A stretch of 64,000 bases of DNA from Minisyncoccia bacterium (GTDB lineage: Bacteria; Patescibacteriota; Minisyncoccia; Phycocordibacterales; UBA918): positions 73,023 to 137,022 of the forward strand of contig JBKJIT010000003.1 in assembly GCA_046598345.1 (NCBI GenBank), read 5' to 3'. Each line of letters begins with the position of its first letter. Positions within the stretch are counted from its first letter, which is position 1. The notes below the pieces were generated by a model that was not told the DNA's origin, did no database searches, and saw only the letters and a program-made list of their open reading frames with translations. The translations under genes and the position numbers were made by a program. Positions 3,528-12,132 of this stretch are shown piece after piece.

Positions 3528-5000
3528 TTAGCAGCAAGCACCGTGTTTTTTTTGCAATTCCTGTATTGCCATAGTCTCCTCTTCATCTCGCTTCTGTTTC
3601 CCTGCTTCTCCAAGCTGAATAAGGGCTTCAAGCGGTAATGCCATTAGCTCCACTGCCCTTTTTTCCATATATTCCTCTGTGTTTTTTCCTGGATCCTCCA
3701 AAACCTCTTCTAAGAGTGCATGGAGGGTGTGTCCGAGTTTAGGTCCGGGTTTCTCCCCAGATAATTCCATGATACGCGAACCATCAATCTTGAGCATTTT
3801 GACGGAGATAGGGTCGCGGAGAGCCTGCTCTACCATGGCGGTGTACTTCCGGAGACGAAGTGGCTGCTCTTTCGGCCTTCCTGTCCCAATTCGATCACAG
3901 CGCCTGAGTTGAAGGAGTTCCCATATGTGCTCTTCTCCCACATTTGCAATTGTCCGTCGAACTGCTGAGAGTGTGACTTGATCGGGGTCGCTAAAAAACA
4001 TGTGCCACCGGACGAGCTTCACCACTTTTTCAATGGTTTCACGTGGAAACTTGAGGTCCTGAAGTGCTTTTTTCGTGACCCGTGCCCCTACGACCTCATG
4101 TCCATGGAACGTCCAATCCTTCTTTTCATCAGACCATCGCCTTGTCTCGGGTTTTGAGACATCGTGAAACAATCCCGCCAACCGAACGTCGAAATGCCAG
4201 TCTTTGTCAGCGGCATGTTGCATGGTGCGAAGTAAATGCTCGTATACGTCAAACGCATGAGCCTGATTTTGCTCAATTCCAATTCCCCGCAGCAGATCTG
4301 GGGCTATATGCTTGAGTAAACCTAATTTCTCGAGGAAGATGATCCCCTGCATAGGGTGTTTTGAGCTTAGAATACGGCTAAATTCGTCGCGAATGCGCTC
4401 TTTTGATATCCGAGCTAAGTTATCACCCACTGCGGCAATGGCTGTAAGCGTATCCCCTTCTATAACGAAGTCTAATTCGACGGCGAGCCGCACAGCACGC
4501 ATCATACGGAGTGCATCTTCACTGAAGCGCTCTGCTGCATTCCCTACCGCTCTGATCCTTTTATCTTGAATATCGCGTATTCCTTCGAAGAGATCCACTG
4601 TTTTTTCCCCCTCCAACCTAAAAGCAATGGCGTTCACCGTAAAGTCTCGTCGTTTCAGGTCTTCTTCGAGGGACACACCAAATTCTACTGAGTCAGGGCG
4701 TCGGGCATCAGAATATACCGATTCGGTTCGGTATGGGGTCACTTCCACCACTTTCAAGGCTGGATTTTCTGTTTCTGACACTACGCCTACTGTGCCGAAG
4801 TCATTATTGAGGTATGTTTCCGGAAACAAGGAGACAATTTCTGTAGGATGCGCGTTTGTCGTTATATCCCAATCCTTTGGCTCCTTACCAATAAGAAGAT
4901 CTCGCACACACCCTCCAACTAGGTAGGCTTCATATCCCCCTTTCTCTAGGGTATCCGCAATATGTTGCACTTCTTTTGGTATATCACTCCGGACAATCAT
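3528..5000 (-). CDS. cca: CCA-adding tRNA nucleotidyltransferase with HD domain
   Basis: GGCVRDLLIGKEPKDWDITT polymerase-beta head motif, plus a C-terminal HD domain. The likely start is MIVRSD at 5000. The longer ORF, extending to 5150, would overlap tRNA-Arg. Confidence 0.85.
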   Translation of the reverse strand: MIVRSDIPKEVQHIADTLEKGGYEAYLVGGCVRDLLIGKEPKDWDITTNAHPTEIVSLFPETYLNNDFGTVGVVSETENPALKVVEVTPYRTESVYSDARRPDSVEFGVSLEEDLKRRDFTVNAIAFRLEGEKTVDLFEGIRDIQDKRIRAVGNAAERFSEDALRMMRAVRLAVELDFVIEGDTLTAIAAVGDNLARISKERIRDEFSRILSSKHPMQGIIFLEKLGLLKHIAPDLLRGIGIEQNQAHAFDVYEHLLRTMQHAADKDWHFDVRLAGLFHDVSKPETRRWSDEKKDWTFHGHEVVGARVTKKALQDLKFPRETIEKVVKLVRWHMFFSDPDQVTLSAVRRTIANVGEEHIWELLQLRRCDRIGTGRPKEQPLRLRKYTAMVEQALRDPISVKMLKIDGSRIMELSGEKPGPKLGHTLHALLEEVLEDPGKNTEEYMEKRAVELMALPLEALIQLGEAGKQKRDEEETMAIQELQKKHGACC

Positions 5001-5077
5001 GCTACCGATTGTAGCAGACTTTTCATACTTTTTCGTTGCAAATTCTAGCTTTAAAACGTATGATACGTCGACATTTT

Positions 5078-5149
5078 GCACCCATAGTGAAATGGATATC
5101 ATTTTTGACTTCGGATCAAACGTTCCAGGTTCGAGTCCTGGTGGGTGCA
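5078..5149 (+). tRNA. tRNA-Arg(TCG)
   Basis: Hand-folded: acceptor GCACCCA/TGGGTGC, D-stem GTGA/TCAT, anticodon stem TTTGA/TCAAA with loop CTTCGGA (anticodon TCG), T-arm CCAGG-TTCGAGT-CCTGG, discriminator A. CCA is not encoded. Confidence 0.85.
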
Positions 5150-5156
5150 CACGAGC

Positions 5157-5196
5157 AAAACAAAACCAGCATTCTCAGGAATGCTGGTTTTGTTTT
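5157..5196 (+). terminator. Hairpin terminator after tRNA-Arg
   Basis: aaaacaaaaccagcattc tcag gaatgctggttttgtttt, a perfect inverted repeat. Confidence 0.65.
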
Positions 5197-5241
5197 AGAG
5201 ACAGAAAGACTTCTGTCTCGGCTCGTGTGCAAGACGGAGCG

Positions 5242-5325
5242 TTATTTTCTTTCCTCACAGAAAGAAAATCGCGAGTCAGGGCAGGAGGTTCTTAGTGAGC
5301 AAAGCGAACTTAGAAACCTGCGCCA
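5242..5325 (+). repeat. Repeat family 2, copy A: stem GATTTTCTTTC/GAAAGAAAAT, then CGCGAG-TCAGGGCAGGAGG-TTCTTAG...CTTAGAAACCTGCG
   Basis: About 70% identical, with conserved blocks, to 11453-11507 (+) and 14412-14466 (-). The GGTT/AACC stem covaries among copies. Confidence 0.7.
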
Positions 5326-5360
5326 CCAAGTGCAAGGCGTAGTAATGTTTTTTAACTACA

Positions 5361-5389
5361 TTGCCTTCCCCTCTCCCCCATACTATAAT
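5361..5389 (+). promoter_or_regulatory. Promoter TTGCCT-17-TATAAT for tRNA-Gly(GCC)
   Basis: TTGCCT at 5361-5366, TATAAT at 5384-5389, about 18 nt upstream of the tRNA 5' end. Confidence 0.55.
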
Positions 5390-5407
5390 CTCTTCACAAT
5401 TTGAATT

Positions 5408-5478
5408 GCGGCCATGGTTAAATGGTATAACGAGTCCTTGCCAAGGATTAGTTGGGAGTTCGATTCTCCCTGGCCGCA
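5408..5478 (+). tRNA. tRNA-Gly(GCC)
   Basis: Acceptor GCGGCCA/TGGCCGC, D-arm GTTA-AATGGTA-TAAC, anticodon stem AGTCC/GGATT with loop TTGCCAA (anticodon GCC), T-arm GGGAG-TTCGATT-CTCCC. Confidence 0.85.
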
Positions 5479-5564
5479 CTAGGATAAGAAAAACTGGGCC
5501 TCGTGCCCGGTTTTTCGTATCCTTGCTGGAGAATCGAAAAGGTTGTCGATAATTCCGACTACAA

Positions 5565-5606
5565 GGAAGAAAGTATCATACAACCTGAACAGGTCCTGCA
5601 AGGACC
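5565..5606 (+). repeat. Repeat family 1, copy c5: GAAAGTATCATACAACCTGAACAG-GTCC-TGCAA-GGAC
   Basis: It shares the GAAAAGTATC...CAACCTG(A/T)AC(A/T)G-stem-TG(T)AA-stem' architecture with 11361-11432, 11521-11575, 44281-44340 and 46727-46790. The stems differ in a compensatory way. Confidence 0.65.
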
Positions 5607-5835
5607 GGCTCTCCCTGGGCGCCAAAATTAAAAACAACCACATCCAGACACAACTGTTGAAAACTGGGGAGAAGTAAGTTGATATGTGTATAAAGGACAA
5701 TTTGTAAAAGTCGTGTTGTCCTTAATATATGGCGTATAGACTTGATATGATAAGGTTTACTCTAGTTTTTAATGCTTGAATAGGTGTTTCACGTGGAACG
5801 TGTTTCCCATGAAACATATGTAGTAAGGTATATCC

Positions 5836-6231
5836 ATGGCTATACATAATACTATTGGAAGACTCGGGGAAGATTTGGCTGCCGACTGGCTCCGAAGGAA
5901 GGGTTTTACCATTGTTTCATGCAATTACAGACAAAAGTGGGGGGAGATTGATATTATCGCTAAAATGGATGGGCGTACTCACTTTTGTGAAGTGAAGACC
6001 GTTTCATATGAAACCATGTCTTTACTCGAGTATGCTGTTTCACATGGAACTTGGAGACCAGAGGAAAAGGTTGATTCGTATAAGCTTAAAAAATTCGCGA
6101 GAACAGTGGAAACTTGGCTTTCTGAAAATAAATACTTAGGTTCTTGGCAGATTGATGTTATTGCAGTGCGAATGGTTCCACGTGAAAAGCACGCAAGAAT
6201 AACAATAATCGAAAACGTGATTATTGAATGA
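5836..6231 (+). CDS. YraN/UPF0102 family endonuclease
   Basis: GEDLAADWLRRKGFTIVSCNYRQKWGEIDIIAKMDGRTHFCEVKT, the UPF0102 signature. Confidence 0.8.
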   Translation: MAIHNTIGRLGEDLAADWLRRKGFTIVSCNYRQKWGEIDIIAKMDGRTHFCEVKTVSYETMSLLEYAVSHGTWRPEEKVDSYKLKKFARTVETWLSENKYLGSWQIDVIAVRMVPREKHARITIIENVIIE

Positions 6232-6246
6232 TTCCACGTGAAACAT

Positions 6247-6867
6247 CTATTTCTGAAGCAATTTCTGAATATCTTCGATAATTTCAGGGAATGTGGGTGA
6301 ATTGAAGTGTCCTCTGTCCTTAAATAAGATATATTCAGCTTTTGGTAGGGCTATGTGATACTTTTCTCCATGTGAATAGGGAACGCAGTCATCGTCTTTT
6401 GAGTGATAAATAACGATGTTTTCGGTGTTCTTGTAGATATCTACAAGCTTAGAGGGGTCAGGGTTAAAATCCCCACCGTCCTCGCCACCGAAATTATCTG
6501 GCTCAAAGGGTGCTGCAACGAGATACAGTTTCCGAATAGGGAAAGGCGTTTGGTTTTCTGAAAGGTATTTTGCAAGAAAATACGCCCCCTGTGAGTGTCC
6601 TATAAGGATTATTTCCCCATTTATTAGCTCAAAATAACGCTCGAACCAGATTTTCCATTCGATATAGCGCGCGTTTTGTGTGTTGGGCATGGATGGATAA
6701 AAGACATCACACGTTGACCCAAATTCTTCTCTCAGTGTTTCTTTCCATTTTTTTCGCTTCAAAATACCAAAAAAATCATCAATTGGCTCTGTTCTTAGGT
6801 TTTCTAAGAACATTTCATAGTTTCGGTACGCTGTGCCTCCATGGATGTAGACGATTTGAGTTTTCAT
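6247..6867 (-). CDS. Alpha/beta hydrolase fold serine hydrolase
   Basis: GHSQGAYF nucleophile elbow (G-x-S-x-G). The size and layout fit small esterase/RBBP9-like hydrolases. Confidence 0.55.
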   Translation of the reverse strand: MKTQIVYIHGGTAYRNYEMFLENLRTEPIDDFFGILKRKKWKETLREEFGSTCDVFYPSMPNTQNARYIEWKIWFERYFELINGEIILIGHSQGAYFLAKYLSENQTPFPIRKLYLVAAPFEPDNFGGEDGGDFNPDPSKLVDIYKNTENIVIYHSKDDDCVPYSHGEKYHIALPKAEYILFKDRGHFNSPTFPEIIEDIQKLLQK

Positions 6868-6936
6868 CTAACCATAATACGAAACAATCCTGACTTTGTC
6901 AGGATTGTTTCGTATTCTGATTGAGAGTGGACTCTT

Positions 6937-6983
6937 TCATTTTAGTGTCTTCGTCCTGATATGGGTCGGGGAGCAGGGAATCT
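6937..6983 (-). repeat. Partial duplicate of the tRNA-Pro 3' end plus downstream flank (att-like direct repeat)
   Basis: ttcattttagtgtcttcgtcctgatatgggtcggggagcagggaatc versus 7279-7325 ttcattttggtgtctttgtcctaacctgggtcggggagcagggaatc. About 48 bp with about 6 mismatches, 342 bp apart. Confidence 0.7.
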
Positions 6984-7056
6984 TTCCTTACATTAACAGT
7001 CTAGGTTGTATGACCATTTCTTTCAGAAATGTTCGACAACCTTTTCGATTCCCTTG

Positions 7057-7104
7057 CGACAATAACAATAAAGACCGGCATAAGCCGGCCATTATTGTTA
7101 TTGT
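7057..7104. repeat. Long near-perfect hairpin (about 20-bp stem)
   Basis: gacaataacaataa-agaccggc-ataa-gccggcc-attattgttattgtc. Confidence 0.6.
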
Positions 7105-7307
7105 CGGGGAGATCGGGTGAGAAAGTACGGGGTACTTTCGCAAGAGCCTGACCACACCTTTCTTCGAAAGCCACAACAATTTTCTTACAGAAACTGTCTA
7201 CTTACATGATTTTGTTCATACTATTCACAAAATCGTTGTAAGTCTTGCGTTGCAAAGCAACTCACCCAGATTGTTGGTTCATTTTGGTGTCTTTGTCCTA
7301 ACCTGGG

Positions 7308-7378
7308 TCGGGGAGCAGGGAATCGAACCCTGACCACACGGTCCCAAACCGCGTACACTACCACTATGCTACACCCCG
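7308..7378 (-). tRNA. tRNA-Pro(TGG)
   Basis: The reverse complement folds as follows. Acceptor CGGGGTG/CTCCCCG, with one U-U mismatch at 6-67. D-arm GCAT-AGTGGTA-GTGT. Anticodon stem CGCGG/CCGTG with loop TTTGGGA. T-arm CAGGG-TTCGATT-CCCTG. Confidence 0.75.
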
Positions 7379-7423
7379 ACCCAAACTGGGACGAGATCTA
7401 GAACCAAGACACCAAAATGAACC

Positions 7424-7459
7424 CCAAACCGCGTACACTACCACTATGCTACACCCCGA
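7424..7459 (-). repeat. Perfect 36-bp duplicate of the tRNA-Pro 5' half
   Basis: cccaaaccgcgtacactaccactatgctacaccccga is identical to 7344-7379. It lies 80 bp upstream of the gene in the tRNA sense. An 18-bp inverted repeat, ggttcattttggtgtctt/aagacaccaaaatgaacc, also flanks the tRNA at 7276-7294 and 7405-7423. Confidence 0.75.
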
Positions 7460-7487
7460 TGTAGCGAGAGAAGTCGCAAAGTAAAGG

Positions 7488-7549
7488 CATTTTTACCGGA
7501 ATGTCTGAAAATAAAGCTTGTTTAATTTTCAGACATTCCGGTAAAAATG
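7488..7549. promoter_or_regulatory. 25-bp perfect inverted repeat with a 12-nt loop, upstream of the ECF sigma gene
   Basis: catttttaccggaatgtctgaaaat-aaagcttgttta-attttcagacattccggtaaaaatg. ORF 7501-7710 spans it and is probably spurious. Confidence 0.6.
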
Positions 7550-7774
7550 AGCATGTTCAGCATGCGCACTTTGCGATTTCCGAGCGAAGAAGGGTTGTAT
7601 CGCAGATACACCCACACCCCTCTATTGGTCAAAAAGCGATTCTTCTTGACGGCGAAATAATACCATCGACTCACGAAATATGCGAATCGGTGCCAGAGGC
7701 CTTGACATGAGCACTGTCATATTTCACTGAAAGAAGTCGGCTTTTTAACCGTCTTCGATTATAATGGTTTCCAC

Positions 7775-8371
7775 ATGGGCAGAGAACCAGAAAAACCACG
7801 TCGGAAACCGACAGGCGACCAAGAAGGAAGCCAAGAGGAGCGTTTTTTGAAAGCGTTTGATGAGTACGTAGACGCGCTCTATCGCCACTCGTCATTTCGG
7901 TTGGCTGATAAAGAACGATCTATTGAGCTCGTGCATGACACCTTCACCAAAGTGTGGGGATACATTCGTGCCGGGCATACCATTGATTCATACAAGCCCT
8001 TTTTGTATAAGGTGCTCAACAATCTTGTAATTGATGAGTATCGTCGTAAAAAGGATGTCTCTCTCGACTCGCTTCTTGCTGAAGAGGGGAAGAGTGAGAG
8101 TTCATTTGATGAGCTCCACGAGGGTTCGATCGAAGAAGTCGTCTTTGGACTTGATGCGAAGAAAGCGGTCGTACTTATCCATGAATTACCACACACGTAT
8201 CGTGAGGTGATCACACTCCGTTATATTGACGGCTTAGGTCCAAAAGAGATCAGCGTCCTCATCGAGGAGACCGAGAATGTTGTGTCGGTACGAATTCATC
8301 GAGCGCTCCGGTTACTTCGGGAACGGATCGAACTTTTGGAAGAAAAATCCAGACGAAAACGAAATGTATAG
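7775..8371 (+). CDS. ECF-type RNA polymerase sigma factor (sigma-24 family)
   Basis: Region 2 (DTFTKVWGYIRAG...YKPFLYKVLNNLVIDEYRRK) and region 4 (EVITLRYIDGLGPKEISVLIEETENVVSVRIHRALRLLRE). A TATAAT box lies 12 nt upstream. A possible ECF-like motif, TGAAAG-N15-CCGTCT, sits at about 7731-7757. Confidence 0.85.
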   Translation: MGREPEKPRRKPTGDQEGSQEERFLKAFDEYVDALYRHSSFRLADKERSIELVHDTFTKVWGYIRAGHTIDSYKPFLYKVLNNLVIDEYRRKKDVSLDSLLAEEGKSESSFDELHEGSIEEVVFGLDAKKAVVLIHELPHTYREVITLRYIDGLGPKEISVLIEETENVVSVRIHRALRLLRERIELLEEKSRRKRNV

Positions 8372-8374
8372 ACT

Positions 8375-9721
8375 ATGAAATCTTTTGATTCTGATGTAAA
8401 AAAATATTCTGAAAAAATACACTTGAGTGTATCTGAACGCCGCGCACTTCGCGAGCGTGTTGTTTCGTATATGGAGTACCATCCACTTGCAAAAGAGGAG
8501 GGGGCTTCATCGTATGCTTTTACTGAAAAATATGTCCTCCTTTCTTTTAATACATTCTGGACAAGAATTGCATCCGGAGCTGCACTCCTTTTACTTATTG
8601 TAGGTATTCCAGTTGCGGCTGAGCGTGCAGTGCCGGGAGATGTTCTCTATTTTGTAAAAACTGAAGTGAATGAAAGTATTCAGTCACAGTTTGCTGATTC
8701 ACCGTACGAAAAAATTGCTTTTGAAACAAAACTCATTGATCGACGTATTGATGAAGCACGTCTTCTTGCAAGTGAAGGGAAACTCACGAAGGAAGTAGAA
8801 GCTTCGATTGCGGAAGATGTAAAAGATCACGCAGAGGCCGCGCAAGATGGCCTTGCAGAACTTCGAACGAATGATGCTGAGGGAGCTGTTATTGCTGAGG
8901 TTACCCTAGGTTCCGCCCTTGAGGTGCAGTCTGCTGTACTCGACACAAATACGAGCGTATCAGCCACATCGTCAATTGAAAATATCTTGGGTGCAGTAAA
9001 TACTGCACGTGAAGAAATTGAGCAGAATCAGAGCACTACCACTTCTGTTACGGTGCTCACGAGTGAAATTGAAGAAGCAACAACTCGCGCGTACGAATTA
9101 TTTGAAACGGTGAAGGAATCAGCTACCAAAGAGGAGGAACGAGATATCAACCGGCGCCTTTCTGATATTGATCGACAAATAGTTGCGGCTAATAAACTTC
9201 GCAATCGTGACGAAGAGGCCGCGGTGAATGAACTCAAGGAGGTACTCGGACTTCTTCAAAAACTTATTGTATTCATGACTGATATTGATGTGAGTGAGAC
9301 GGTTACGCTTGAGGCACTTGTACCTATCGTACCGACGATTGAAGAGCATGTAGCAAGCACACGGGCTACACTTGCACGTGTGGCTACGACTGCAAGTATT
9401 ATTGAGAAGCGAACCTCCTTTGTTTCTGATGCTTCTGTGCAGGAAAAGGTGTTGCTAGGTCTCGAAGCAGTAGCAGCTCTCTCTGACGATGTACTAGTAC
9501 GGCTTTCGAGTGAAGAACCTGATATGGAAGGTATTCTGAAGCAACTCTTTGAAGCCGAAGCTCTCGTACAAGACCTTGAAAAAATGACTCTCGAAACAAT
9601 CATTTCAGACGAAGAGAGTACGAAGTTTCCAACACCAGTCATTCCCGGAGAAACGAGTACCAGTAGCTCATCCACGACCATAGAAGCTACACTTCCGCTC
9701 CCAATCTTTGTGGCAGAATAA
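8375..9721 (+). CDS. Putative anti-sigma factor: single-pass membrane protein with an extracytoplasmic coiled-coil/Ser-Thr-rich domain
   Basis: It starts 4 nt after the sigma gene. It has a ~65-aa cytoplasmic N-terminus, one TM helix (ALLLLIVGIPVAA), then a long helical low-complexity ectodomain. This is the classic ECF anti-sigma architecture, but the family was not recognised. Confidence 0.5.
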   Translation: MKSFDSDVKKYSEKIHLSVSERRALRERVVSYMEYHPLAKEEGASSYAFTEKYVLLSFNTFWTRIASGAALLLLIVGIPVAAERAVPGDVLYFVKTEVNESIQSQFADSPYEKIAFETKLIDRRIDEARLLASEGKLTKEVEASIAEDVKDHAEAAQDGLAELRTNDAEGAVIAEVTLGSALEVQSAVLDTNTSVSATSSIENILGAVNTAREEIEQNQSTTTSVTVLTSEIEEATTRAYELFETVKESATKEEERDINRRLSDIDRQIVAANKLRNRDEEAAVNELKEVLGLLQKLIVFMTDIDVSETVTLEALVPIVPTIEEHVASTRATLARVATTASIIEKRTSFVSDASVQEKVLLGLEAVAALSDDVLVRLSSEEPDMEGILKQLFEAEALVQDLEKMTLETIISDEESTKFPTPVIPGETSTSSSSTTIEATLPLPIFVAE

Positions 9722-9765
9722 TACATACTAAAAACGCGACCGTACGGTCGCGTTTTTAGTATGTA
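9722..9765. terminator. Bidirectional perfect hairpin terminator
   Basis: atacatactaaaaacgcgaccgtacggtcgcgtttttagtatgtat, between convergent genes. Confidence 0.7.
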
Positions 9766-10941
9766 TTATTCTGTCTTTTCCCCCGCGAGAAGCTCTTCGG
9801 TGAGCAACTTAGCGAGAAATGGAGTAAGTGCACCTTTAAATACATCTCCACGGTAGGCAAGATCGCCCTGCATATTGTCGCGAAGTGAATACCCGGTTTC
9901 TTCAATAATCGTTCTATTTATGTATGAAACAGTAATGGCATGGAGACTGTATTGACCCTCAGTCTCTTCGTTACCCTTTGTCACAATAAGCCCAATTACG
10001 TCGCCACTTTCTCGTGCAATCGGACCACCGGAGGCTCCCTGAGCACCAACGGGGGATTCTGATACTGAAAAAATATCAGCGTAGTTACTGCCGAATGTGT
10101 AAAGCTCACGTAAGGTCGTCGAAGCAATGACAGGAACAAGTCTTGCACGGGCGCCCTCACGGAACAATGCCTCGGCAGGATAGCCAGAGGTCAGGATTGA
10201 AATACCCTTTGTATGAATGGAAAGTAAATCAGTATCCAGTGTAAGGGAGGGGAATGTTTCGGGCAGGGTTCTGTCTTTTAGGGGTTCGGAAACATAGAGG
10301 AGAGCATAGTCACGTTCCCCCGTGCCACGCGGGGTTTCTTCCGCAATGAGGGCGGCATTTTCATAGACCCACATAGGTGAAAGGTACAACAGTTCTGCGT
10401 GGTAGGTCGGTACCGCAGGATTTCCGGTACGAACAATACATTCAGCATCGATTACATCCTCATCGTTTCCTTCAAGAAGTAGAAATTGTGCAACGTGTGC
10501 ATTGGTGAGGATGACTCCTTTTTTGTTGATGAAAAATCCAGTGCCTGTCGTCGTGCGAATATACTCGTCAGTTTTATACTGGCAAAAAATATTTACCAAT
10601 GATTCTTCTATTTGATTTCGCACCGGTGTATCTGAAGGGGTGGGGGTAAATTCTTCTCCGAGTGCTGCCGCGCTCTGTGCCGCCTGTAAGTATGCATCAT
10701 TGGTGCGAATAAGACTCAAGATTTCCGTGGTAAGCGACGTAGTGAGTTGCTTGCTCAGGTTCTTTAGTTCTTCTGAGGCTGTGATACGTGTCGGTTCTTC
10801 GTCAATGCTGACAGATTGTGCGGGTGGAGTCTCTTCAAGTTCTGCAATACGAATCACCTGATCAGCGACGATGTTCGTAAAAGCGAGGTATGCAACGAGA
10901 ACTGACGAAATAAAACTACCGAGGAACTCGAACATAACCAT
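9766..10941 (-). CDS. Membrane-anchored trypsin-like (S1 family, HtrA/DegS-like) serine protease, no PDZ domain
   Basis: N-terminal TM helix. GTGFFINKKGVILTNAHV for the His region, and GASGGPIARESGDVIGLIVT for the catalytic Ser motif GxSGGP. Confidence 0.75.
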   Translation of the reverse strand: MVMFEFLGSFISSVLVAYLAFTNIVADQVIRIAELEETPPAQSVSIDEEPTRITASEELKNLSKQLTTSLTTEILSLIRTNDAYLQAAQSAAALGEEFTPTPSDTPVRNQIEESLVNIFCQYKTDEYIRTTTGTGFFINKKGVILTNAHVAQFLLLEGNDEDVIDAECIVRTGNPAVPTYHAELLYLSPMWVYENAALIAEETPRGTGERDYALLYVSEPLKDRTLPETFPSLTLDTDLLSIHTKGISILTSGYPAEALFREGARARLVPVIASTTLRELYTFGSNYADIFSVSESPVGAQGASGGPIARESGDVIGLIVTKGNEETEGQYSLHAITVSYINRTIIEETGYSLRDNMQGDLAYRGDVFKGALTPFLAKLLTEELLAGEKTE

Positions 10942-11203
10942 ATTGATTTCATAGTAGCATGTGAGTGCTGCTAAAAATGGCTCAGGCTGGGGGTTTAATC
11001 TGGAGGCCTAATATGCTAGAATCATCCGGACTTCTAAAAGAGTTGTGGACGGGTGTATGACAAGCATACAACCGCCCAGTTCGCAGAAATGATGCAAAAG
11101 GAAGCACCGCTTCCGTAAGACTTCCATTATTTCACATGAAAGCAAGCTTTCCTTTGAAATAACGGTAGCCTTACCAGCTACTTTTGCATCATCCTACTCA
11201 CTT

Positions 11204-11274
11204 GCGGGTGTAGTTTAGTGGTAAAACGACTGCCTTCCAAGCAGTAGTTGGGGGTTCGATTCCTCTCGCCCGCA
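11204..11274 (+). tRNA. tRNA-Gly(TCC)
   Basis: Acceptor GCGGGTG/CGCCCGC, D-arm GTTT-AGTGGTA-AAAC, anticodon stem ACTGC/GCAGT with loop CTTCCAA, T-arm GGGGG-TTCGATT-CCTCT. Confidence 0.85.
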
Positions 11275-11318
11275 CACATACGAAAAACCGTCCTATAGGA
11301 CGGTTTTTCGTATGTGTG
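11273..11318 (+). terminator. Perfect hairpin terminator after tRNA-Gly(TCC)
   Basis: cacacatacgaaaaaccgtcc-tata-ggacggtttttcgtatgtgtg. Confidence 0.7.
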
Positions 11319-11360
11319 CGGGCGAAGCAATGTGCAAAATGCACATTGCGTGAGGAATCG

Positions 11361-11432
11361 AAGCTGTTGCGAGATATCTTTTTGAGTGAAACGATGAAAA
11401 GTATCCGCAACGGGTACTGAAACTGTAAGTTT
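11361..11432 (+). repeat. Repeat family 1, copy c3: stem GATATCTTTTT/GAAAAGTATC, then CGCAACGGGTACTGA-AACT-GTAA-GTTT
   Basis: Aligned with c1, c2, c4 and c5. It is immediately followed by a tRNA 3' fragment. Confidence 0.65.
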
Positions 11433-11447
11433 CGATTCCTCTCGCCC
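11431..11447 (+). repeat. Partial duplicate of the tRNA-Gly(TCC) 3' end (ttcgattcctctcgccc)
   Basis: 17/17 identical to 11256-11272, the T-loop and 3' acceptor of the intact tRNA, about 175 bp downstream. Confidence 0.7.
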
Positions 11448-11452
11448 TAAAC

Positions 11453-11507
11453 CGCGAGGTCGGGTAGGGAGTTCTTAGCAAGCGTAGCTAGCTTAGAAAC
11501 TTGACGC
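11453..11507 (+). repeat. Repeat family 2, copy B: CGCGAGGTCGGGTAGGGAG-TTCTTAG-CAAGCGTAGCTAG-CTTAGAAAC-TTGACGCCA
   Basis: It aligns block by block with 5269-5325 and with the minus strand of 14412-14466. Confidence 0.7.
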
Positions 11508-11520
11508 CAAAACTTTTTAT

Positions 11521-11575
11521 GAGCGAAGAGAACCAAAATATCGACAACCTGTACTGATCCTGTAAGGATCGATTC
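11521..11575 (+). repeat. Repeat family 1, copy c1: GAGCGAAGAGAACCAAAATATCGACAACCTGTACTGA-GATCC-TGTAA-GGATC
   Basis: See the family 1 alignment. Confidence 0.65.
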
Positions 11576-11615
11576 ATGTTTTATAAAAAAGCCGCCACTT
11601 TCATGGCGGCCGGGA

Positions 11616-11906
11616 CTACGGGGTTGGAAGATCCTTTATTCGAAGATGTTCAGGCAGTTGTGGACCGACTTCCTTGAATATTTCCATACAAGACTGAGCA
11701 CTGGTCTTGAGTTGGTCAAGGTTTATGGGGGCTGACTGTGCATTGAGGTTTGGCTTCTGAAACCCAAATGGGTCTTCAAGGTACTCCAGTCCGCGCACTG
11801 CTTCCTCACCAATCTTGATGGTGGTGGGAACAGTTGAATTCGCCCCAGGGCCAGGATCAACATAATTCCATCGTATAGCGTCTACTGTTAGGTCGTTTTC
11901 CATCAT
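11616..11906 (-). CDS. Hypothetical small protein
   Basis: A 96-aa ORF with no recognisable motif. Flanked by terminator-like hairpins. Confidence 0.35.
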   Translation of the reverse strand: MMENDLTVDAIRWNYVDPGPGANSTVPTTIKIGEEAVRGLEYLEDPFGFQKPNLNAQSAPINLDQLKTSAQSCMEIFKEVGPQLPEHLRIKDLPTP

Positions 11907-12132
11907 GTACTCCTCTGTATGCCAACCAGCAGTATCTCATATACTTTCATTATTATCACAGCAAAAAGCCCCTTGCGGGGCTTTTTGCTGTGATGGGATT
12001 AGCGGATGTATATCCGTGGTTTCCCACGTTGTATATATAGCGAGAGTTTGGGTACATGACCAAACTCAGTTAATACCTCCGCTACAAAAAAAGTATATCA
12101 TGTTCATGAAGTCGAGCTAGTGTGTATAACAT

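Follow-up and report, generated by a model that had tools for sequence, protein, structure and literature searches.

An intact tRNA-Pro gene lies between the halves of a second tRNA-Pro copy in Patescibacteria

The gene considered here is a tRNA-Pro(UGG) on the minus strand of a 64,000-nucleotide stretch of contig JBKJIT010000003.1 from a Minisyncoccia bacterium (assembly GCA_046598345.1), an ultra-small member of the Patescibacteria (CPR); this stretch is referred to below as the window. ARAGORN places the gene at 7304–7379, and the Rfam tRNA model RF00005 covers positions 7308–7378 with a score of 61.3 bits compared to a threshold of 29, which places it in the tRNA class. Its sequence agrees with orthologues in 39 genomes. 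The encoded 3′ end consists of A73 followed by CCCA (ACCCA), with no proper CCA in the gene; a gene for a CCA-adding enzyme is located 2 kb from tRNA-Pro. An earlier reading of this DNA from its letters alone (the sequence-only reading) had pointed out a U6–U67 mismatch in the acceptor stem. The mismatch is present, and it is a lineage trait and no defect because most of the 39 related tRNA-Pro genes carry it. The same reading had asked which copy of the tRNA is functional; the tRNA caller reports the copy at 7304–7379 on the minus strand, and, to judge from its sequence, this inner copy is the functional gene. An Rfam search of positions 4500–12000 (cmscan, E ≤ 1) returned four tRNAs and chance matches to miRNA-like hairpins and nothing else, and the small open reading frames across the region (47–74 aa) belong to no Pfam family.

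Three repeats surround the gene, none of which is expected by chance. The first is a perfect direct repeat of 37 nt (7343–7379 and 7423–7459; 0 expected from shuffles), which corresponds to tRNA positions −1 to G37. The second (6936–6982 versus 7278–7324) extends over 47 nt with 89% identity and 5 mismatches, and corresponds to the tRNA from G57 to its 3′ end together with 26 nt of the trailer. The third is an inverted repeat with 25-nt arms (7276–7300 and 7399–7423) that are 92% complementary; read as RNA, its pairing extends through 7380–7386 with 7301–7308 into the acceptor stem. All three had been noticed in the sequence-only reading and differ only in their dimensions, which were given there as 36 nt for the perfect copy of the 5′ half upstream of the tRNA, about 48 nt with about 6 mismatches for the copy of the 3′ end downstream, and 18 nt for the inverted repeat around the gene. 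A hairpin that it placed at 7057–7104 is likewise real; it spans 7057–7106, has arms of 23 nt, and receives a terminator score for the minus strand.

The three repeats are parts of one conserved layout and no random scars (Table 1). The intact tRNA-Pro(UGG) gene sits between the halves of a second tRNA-Pro copy, which is split after G37 and resumes at G41.

Table 1. Features of the nested tRNA-Pro locus, in the order of transcription, with the adjoining shadow module
Feature	Coordinates	Strand	Description
Promoter-like site of the whole unit	7657–7686	minus	TTCGCA, 18-nt spacer, TG-extended TATTAT; promoter scan
Structured leader module	7470–7580	minus	13-bp stem (7568–7580 with 7470–7482) enclosing two hairpins
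5′ half copy	7423–7459	minus	tRNA-Pro −1 to G37; 37/37 identical to inner gene
Leader X	7380–7422	minus	5′ strand of helix; holds 12-nt clade-specific bulge
Inner intact tRNA-Pro(UGG)	7304–7379	minus	tRNA positions 1–73 = 7378–7308; ARAGORN, Rfam, plain-locus orthologues
Trailer X′	7276–7307	minus	3′ strand of helix; ends in invariant ACC (= tRNA positions 38–40)
Hairpin h	7175–7275	minus	8-bp stem, 7268–7275 with 7175–7182
GTGG linker and hairpin hp2	7158–7174	minus	hp2: CUUUC GAA GAAAG
3′ half copy	7104–7157	minus	starts at G41; acceptor 3′ strand CUCCCCGA at its end
Intrinsic terminator of the unit	7057–7106	minus	23-bp stem; overlaps end of 3′ half copy
Shadow module	6936–7053	minus	expanded T-arm-like GGGAAUCGAA..AGGUUGU..ACAACCU..GAUUCCC

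The motif CTCGCnTTTTT..TGGTAtTAT is kept upstream of tRNA-Pro in nested relatives and in plain ones (those with a single, uninterrupted gene) alike. This conserved promoter lies upstream of the 5′ half, at a distance of only about 20 nt in three nested loci (L042, L044 and L051). In the window the intervening leader module includes a hairpin of 28 bp (7488–7549), and its architecture is also found, with a different sequence, in L046, L050, L052, L054 and L055. At the other end of the unit, the 3′ half of the window has UCUUGCGA-hairpin-UCUCACC in place of the T-arm, and the outer fold is therefore not a canonical tRNA. Within the unit, a terminator scan finds a site only after the 3′ half; a weaker second match falls within the leader that precedes the 5′ half.

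Comparisons with the closest relatives by protein identity show what has been inserted into what. Five of these relatives have a plain tRNA-Pro locus (L028, L050, L052, L054 and L055), while two are nested (L046 and L051). In the plain loci a structured leader ending in CTTCTCTCGCTACA abuts the intact tRNA, and a homologous CAAA and terminator hairpin follow directly after it. In the window the same type of leader precedes the 5′ half, and the CTTCTCTCGCTACA upstream of that half matches the leader of plain locus L052 without a difference. From this homology of leader and terminator it follows that the 5′ and 3′ half copies represent the ends of the resident gene, and that the stretch 7158–7422 is an insertion between tRNA positions 37 and 41. 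The comparison of empty with occupied sites that the sequence-only reading had proposed thus finds both alleles. YraN, tRNA-Pro, the hydrolase, the sigma factor and DUF5667 adjoin in nested and plain loci alike.

The same arrangement is widespread in the phylum. A scan for exact matches to the anticodon arm yielded 39 tRNA-Pro loci, which all belong to metagenome-assembled genomes of Patescibacteria (labelled Kaiserbacteria, Paceibacteria or Parcubacteria). The nested order is present in six genome loci (L026, L031, L033, L034, L037 and L051, the last of which was located separately through homologues of the hydrolase) and in four metagenome contigs (L042, L044, L045 and L046), which were obtained by a search for the junction of the 5′ half with X. 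The exact-match scans miss lineages such as L051, which has a variant anticodon stem; the number of nested lineages is at least 11. All have in common the order promoter, 5′ half, X, tRNA, X′, h, GYGG linker, hp2, 3′ half, and CAAA with terminator, and in nearly all loci the syntenic neighbours are YraN/UPF0102, a Ser-hydrolase, an ECF sigma factor, DUF5667 and the CCA-adding enzyme. Across the nested loci X measures 32–43 nt, the stem of h 8 bp and that of hp2 4–5 bp. The 37|41 boundaries recur in 11 divergent lineages (the window and ten independent assemblies), with the 5′ half ending at G37 in 10 of the 11 and decayed in L033. The stretch from the tRNA to the 3′ half is 65–69 nt long in 9 of 10 loci compared to 148 nt in the window, where a lineage-specific insertion of 86 nt (7182–7267) in the loop of h accounts for the excess. 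L026 and L037 possess a minihelix and a native-type leader between X and the tRNA; relative to these, the compact form of the window corresponds to a deletion between two TCGGGGTGTA repeats.

With this many independent occurrences, a chimeric join at a repeated tRNA, introduced by assembly or binning, is a negligible possibility. The window assembly does cross the perfect 37-nt repeat, a branching point for short-read graphs, and Logan contigs break there. However, two independent Logan contigs of SRR31159418 terminate with an overlap of k−1 = 30 nt at each end of the 37-mer, branching at both ends is what is expected of a true repeat in a k = 31 graph, and ten other assemblies from NCBI, JGI and ENA contain the same layout together with compensating changes. 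Such loci will trip up annotation pipelines and short-read assemblers, which mis-call or break them; the Logan contigs provide an example.

The compensating changes are concentrated in the sequences that flank the inner gene. In every nested locus X pairs with X′ near end to end, from G37:C to U−1:A73, over 33–36 positions and with −33 to −48 kcal/mol (−42.8 kcal/mol in the window). This exceeds the flank helix of at least 20 bp, with compensatory change, by which we define a leader-trailer stem. With flanks of 45 nt, the leader-trailer duplex amounts to −38 to −50 kcal/mol in the compact nested loci compared to −5 to −23 kcal/mol in 40 non-nested loci. The sequences of X and X′ differ widely between clades. 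In a gap-free alignment, registered by us at the G37 and ACC anchors and not pair by pair, and padded with N, 95.6% of the cells are paired, compared to 81.5% in shuffles and 50% or less when the partner is slid. Changes on both sides affect 31 pairs, a number reached by 0 of 500 shuffles, and the non-Watson–Crick cells on the tRNA strand comprise 23 G–U and 5 A–C, although the shuffle counts and the 23:5 ratio overstate independence because the sequences are phylogenetically related. Covariation is found at 15 of 20 pairs of the outer X:X′ helix, 5 of 8 of the acceptor extension, 6 of 8 of h and 4 of 5 of hp2. The excess of G–U over A–C on the tRNA strand indicates that the helices are selected as sense RNA; an inverted repeat acting at the DNA level, such as transposon terminal repeats or a cruciform, is disfavoured by the same ratio.

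Predicted folds agree with this pairing. The window segment 7100–7462 folds with −141 kcal/mol (z = −6.2), and in the minimum free energy folds of L045 and L034 the inner cloverleaf sits at the tip of a long helix, which leaves the anticodon region of an outer tRNA-like fold made of the two half copies. One further locus, L056, has kept homologues of X and X′, while the half copies, h and hp2 are absent, and its duplex reaches only −12.8 kcal/mol. We considered L056 as a "stem-only" form of the unit and dropped this idea on account of the weak duplex; it is probably a remnant. Its weak pairing suggests that the helix may be of importance only in loci that have the half copies.

The half copies themselves evolve in concert with the gene that they enclose. 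The inner tRNA varies among lineages at nine positions, which include an A/G difference in the D-loop, the UAUGG anticodon stem of L051, A41, the variable loop and the T-stem, and intact half copies carry the base of their own inner tRNA at all nine. This match to lineage-specific bases indicates gene conversion. In eight loci the 5′ half differs from its own tRNA at 0–2 positions, while L026 has a truncated copy, L037 a copy with 8 differences, and L033 has lost it. The single substitutions in 5′ halves that are otherwise intact (L034, L031 and L046) all lie in the acceptor 5′ strand and are uncompensated. The 3′ half is a perfect copy of positions 41–73 in L031, L034, L037 and L045, and in the window, L026, L033 and L046 it has the T-arm replaced by homologous versions of UCUUGCGA-hairpin-UCUCACC. 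This old T-arm variant recurs across clades, and sister lineages have perfect copies. Together with the identity at unpaired positions, its distribution across clades points to recurrent gene conversion and not to selection on an outer tRNA.

Such observations could also be read as signs of a structure without function. In that case the nesting would have arisen once, by local duplication or insertion, and its loss would need two deletions with harmful intermediates; the helix would be selected only for correct folding of the inner tRNA beside the competing halves. The decay of the outer halves in three lineages, the replaced T-arms, the uncompensated acceptor-strand substitutions, the identity at unpaired positions, which favours gene conversion over structural selection, and the relaxed pairing of X with X′ in L056, which lacks the halves, all fit this explanation. 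On the other hand, h and hp2 covary and hold their length, the segment behind the tRNA measuring 65–69 nt in 9 of 10 loci, which suggests something beyond passive persistence, the helix keeps a length of about 33–36 bp, and perfect 37-nt direct repeats only 43 nt apart should delete readily. Weighing both, we regard passive persistence as possible but rather doubtful.

The sequence-only reading had interpreted the repeats as scars of integration or an unusual att configuration. On such a view the half copies would be attL/attR remnants of tRNA-targeting integrative elements whose crossovers fell in the anticodon loop and the T-loop and whose interiors have since been deleted. Parts of this interpretation stand. 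There is indeed an insertion inside tRNA-Pro relative to the plain L050, L052, L054 and L055, the plain gene in close relatives would be the empty site, the boundaries of the copies (37|41 and G57) coincide with classical integrase sublocations in the anticodon loop and T-loop, and shadows of 3′ ends also occur downstream of other tRNAs. The assignment to an integrase fares worse. Neither a motif search by regular expressions nor Pfam assignments of all 43 open reading frames of at least 180 aa revealed any integrase, transposase or phage gene in the 64 kb. The large open reading frames of the window are all housekeeping genes, among them those for ribosomal proteins, EF-G, EF-Tu, NusA, RNase Y, ClpP, pilus components and ComEC. 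An integrase or element carrying a matching tRNA fragment, for which the sequence-only reading had proposed a search, appears neither in the 64 kb nor in viral contigs: three scans of IMG/VR for a matching attP, with the intact tRNA core, the 3′ end and the 5′ half as queries (the pattern leaving aside the window-type junction of 5′ half and X), gave only chance matches in coding sequence and an unrelated tRNA array of a jumbo phage.

The spacing of the copies points in the same direction. Partial tRNA copies accompany 34 of about 110 tRNA genes in the fetched loci, all within 600 nt, so that none is separated from its tRNA by a kilobase-scale element; in the window the intervals between repeat copies are 43 nt and 295 nt, with no element body of kilobase size. 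Partial copies of 5′ parts occur only upstream of tRNA-Pro, while those of 3′ parts follow the genes for tRNA-Pro, Gly(GCC), Gly(UCC) and Arg(UCG). Moreover, the insert comprises a full tRNA and covarying helices with an RNA-type G–U bias, its boundaries and module order are identical across 11 divergent lineages, and a scar would leave unexplained why the upstream 5′ half is paired through X to the trailer. Integration scars are accordingly a very unlikely explanation of the half copies. The alternative that the sequence-only reading had itself named as fatal to its proposal, copies that lie within a structured unit unrelated to integration, is largely what the conserved nested layout amounts to.

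A different kind of mobility is conceivable, in which a selfish, intron-like and non-autonomous cassette S (X–tRNA–X′–h–hp2) enters tRNA-Pro at position 37/38, is tolerated by virtue of the replacement tRNA, and spreads horizontally among Patescibacteria. We consider this unlikely, more so than passive persistence. The nested loci are scattered among plain ones in the tree, the nearest relatives L028, L050 and L052 being plain; both sides of the insert always occur, or are missing, together; the X of the window, L042 and L051 are 70–80% alike (by eye) while the proteins of these hosts are 40–66% identical; and the insertion point is the canonical intron site. But the tree, based on a small number of genes, is crude, the inner tRNA of L051 does not differ from the plain tRNA of L050, the host's nearest relative, the window holds a single copy of X, the cassette comes without any identified mobilising enzyme, and the 38–76 exon is not left intact, as h and hp2 intervene between ACC and G41.

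These results lead us to propose that the locus is a nested tRNA-Pro transcription unit, in which the stem directs both the folding and the release of the inner tRNA. We hold this reading with moderate confidence. A single precursor of about 330–600 nt would extend from the outer promoter (7657–7686) to the outer terminator (7057–7106), and the long helix would make the halves of the inner tRNA pair with each other against the competing outer halves. The helix could also give access to an endonuclease that cuts double strands, most likely RNase III, and this cut would free a short pre-tRNA for subsequent action of RNase P, 3′ trimming and the CCA-adding enzyme. RNase III (rnc) is retained in CPR bacteria (PMC12641178); an rnc signature is absent from the 64-kb window. 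Leader-trailer pairing that reaches −1:73 should impede RNase P as long as the helix stays closed. The outer halves would be the remains of the resident gene, kept identical to the inner gene by gene conversion. The nested unit could have originated from a tRNA-bearing cassette put into the anticodon loop, from a nested duplication, or from a mobile element.

The locus shows reversible gain and loss, combined with concerted evolution, at one essential gene. The concatenated-protein neighbour-joining tree, built from few genes, is too crude to distinguish many losses from several gains. Because the half copies are direct repeats, two deletions could lead back to a plain gene, and this would account for the patchy occurrence of the nested form. 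This two-deletion route predicts a one-sided intermediate, and no locus with a half copy on a single side was found among about 55 loci, which counts against the nested unit; an intermediate of this kind would leave a half copy without its partner, which may explain why none is seen.

Known systems offer partial parallels. In bacterial rRNA operons, leader-trailer stems close the mature domain (PMC10250234). Like these RNase III stems, the flanks of the inner tRNA pair over more than 20 bp and preserve covariation rather than sequence. Unlike them, the helix encloses a single 71-nt tRNA, runs without a gap into the acceptor stem and has its base directly at the anticodon loop where the second tRNA copy is split, and its cleavage is inferred. 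The break immediately after position 37 is the canonical site of group I introns in tRNA genes, in contrast to which the locus contains no match to a group I core or ribozyme (cmscan of 4500–12000, E ≤ 1). The direct continuation of the 5′ half into the complement of sequence on the side of the 3′ half resembles the split tRNAs of Nanoarchaeum. Unlike the introns of disrupted tRNA genes in Archaea and red algae, the insert contains the same tRNA as a whole and functional gene. The junction, inspected by eye, is an unbroken helix (G37:C, G:C, U:A) without 3-nt bulges, and no BHB motif is evident. In contrast to spliced, split and permuted tRNAs, the 3′ exon is discontiguous (ACC, then h and hp2, then G41), and joining of the exons would give no intact tRNA.

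The outer gene is probably not spliced into a tRNA, since it is decaying in several lineages. We rejected the outer halves as a spliceable tRNA on two counts: ACC (38–40) lies 36 nt from G41, separated by h, GYGG and hp2, and the outer copies are mutated or truncated in several lineages. The repeat blurs the boundaries, so that the 80 nt at 7343–7422 could formally be an intron in a tRNA that begins at 7459; this alternative was set aside as uninformative, since such an intron would hold the same 5′ half. The duplications at attL and attR share with this locus the direct repetition of tRNA segments from the anticodon loop or T-loop and the existence of empty sites in relatives, and differ from it in that here no integrase or element body is present, a 5′ duplication stands beside the 3′ one, tRNA and covarying RNA helices lie between the repeats, and the layout is stably inherited. 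Removal of the internal segment would leave a tRNA-like RNA in two pieces, as in the two-piece tmRNA of permuted ssrA genes, but this is a resemblance only. In the engineered "tRNA scaffold" RNAs of Ponchon and Dardel, a structured RNA is reportedly inserted through a helix into the anticodon arm; here again the relationship is one of resemblance, as the present layout is natural, its cargo is a tRNA, and a stable outer product is hypothetical.

The nested unit belongs among disrupted tRNA genes and processing-stem layouts. It might conceivably be a tRNA interruption at 37/38 that is processed by proteins instead of self-splicing and has a complete tRNA as its cargo, a reading to which we give little credence. 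In one version, a mobile "self-compensating" cassette may invade tRNA-Pro and supply its own replacement; in another, the precursor may yield the mature tRNA together with a stable tRNA-like RNA in two pieces, formed by the outer halves. Either version, if true, would give Bacteria their first equivalent of the disrupted tRNA genes known from Archaea. According to a review, bacterial tRNA genes "lack structural diversity", group I and group II introns at 37/38 being the sole exception (PMC4033280), and the literature that we searched contains no description of nested tRNAs or of tRNA introns in Patescibacteria. A conserved tRNA within a tRNA, closed by a covarying stem of about 35 bp, would constitute a new organisation of bacterial tRNA genes, unexpected for genes that are regarded as structurally uniform, and would offer a concrete and testable substrate of tRNA maturation for organisms whose set of ribonucleases is reduced.

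The second repeat of the sequence-only reading forms the last 47 nt of a separate module downstream of the unit, which we refer to as a shadow. In the shadow of the window, the acceptor 3′ strand comes after the T-arm-like structure, together with an older X′, which resembles the X′ of L026. Shadow-type modules are also found after tRNA-Gly(GCC) and tRNA-Gly(UCC) in the window and after many tRNAs of its relatives. In this class of modules GGGAAUCGAA pairs with a copied strand of the T-loop and T-stem around inner hairpins, and the acceptor 3′ strand and a terminator of the module's own follow. The Pro and Gly(GCC) shadows of the window have AATCGAAAAGGTTGTCGA...TCATACAACCT in common.

Copies of tRNA ends are not confined to the tRNA-Pro locus. 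Structured downstream modules holding a copy of the tRNA 3' part, here called shadows, lie 130–340 nt downstream of several different tRNAs and carry in each case that tRNA's own sequence from the T-loop to the 3' end. Besides the window (Table), they are present at the related tRNA-Pro loci L006, L013, L015, L018, L020, L028, L032, L036, L037, L039 and L040. In every shadow the copy pairs with an inverted GGGAAUCGAA-type arm, and each has its own terminator on the 3' side. The hairpins inside the shadows vary in sequence while their pairing is kept. Shadows of different tRNAs and from different genomes share the motifs AAGGTTGTCGA..TCATACAACCT and GGGTACTGAAACTGTAAGTTTCGATTCC. An Rfam search of window positions 4500–12000 (E ≤ 1) yielded no match to the shadow modules.

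The terminator palindromes that follow the tRNAs are long (23–26 bp). They start within the acceptor 3' strand, so that the tRNA end is repeated in inverted orientation as their descending arm (GUCGGGG / GUGCGGGC), which could pair alternatively with the downstream shadow. A second repeated module, GGAG(G/T)TTCTTAG..CTTAGAAAC(C/T)TG.CGCCA, resembles an expanded T-arm together with an acceptor-like 3' end; the copy following tRNA-Arg ends in CCACCA.

Coordinates of tRNA-associated features (window positions unless a related locus, L0xx, is named)
Feature	Position	Remarks
Shadow	5524–5625	after tRNA-Gly(GCC)
Shadow	11348–11447	after tRNA-Gly(UCC)
Second repeated module	5151–5350 and 11455–11510	after tRNA-Arg and tRNA-Gly(UCC)
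Terminator palindromes	11268–11323 and 7057–7106	also in most relatives
Minihelix hairpins, tRNA-Pro leader	~7590–7625	also L003, L006, L013, L026, L027, L028, L029, L037, L046, L054
Leader module	7470–7580	13-bp stem around two hairpins
tRNA-Pro flanked by X and X' homologues (L031-like)	L056 ~2070–2260	

One to three "minihelix" hairpins (UCGGGGUGUAAGC..GCUUUCACCCC, then CUCUUCGCUCGGA) occur per tRNA-Pro leader, in nested loci (those with half copies of the tRNA on both sides) and plain loci alike. The 5' strand of these hairpins duplicates the tRNA's initial ~10 nt, lineage variants included (A5 in L029). One of the hairpins enclosed in the leader module of the window is 28 bp long with a U-rich tail. 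The same architecture is found with unrelated sequence in L046, L050, L052, L054 and L055, which suggests a conserved structured leader. On the trailer side, a lineage-specific insertion of 86 nt (7182–7267), with hairpins predicted within it, occupies the loop of hairpin h in the window.

The tRNA-Pro locus is rearrangement-prone. When L050, L051 and L052 were compared with the window, L054, L055 and L056, the entire tRNA-Pro unit was inverted relative to the neighbouring hydrolase gene in some close relatives, and several of those compared have a CorA gene between tRNA-Pro and the sigma factor. The tRNA-Pro of L056 lacks half copies and the small hairpins h and hp2, and is flanked by homologues of the leader and trailer strands X and X'; it is possible that this arrangement is a remnant or a precursor of the nested form. 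The X:X' pairing in L056 is decayed (−12.8 kcal/mol).
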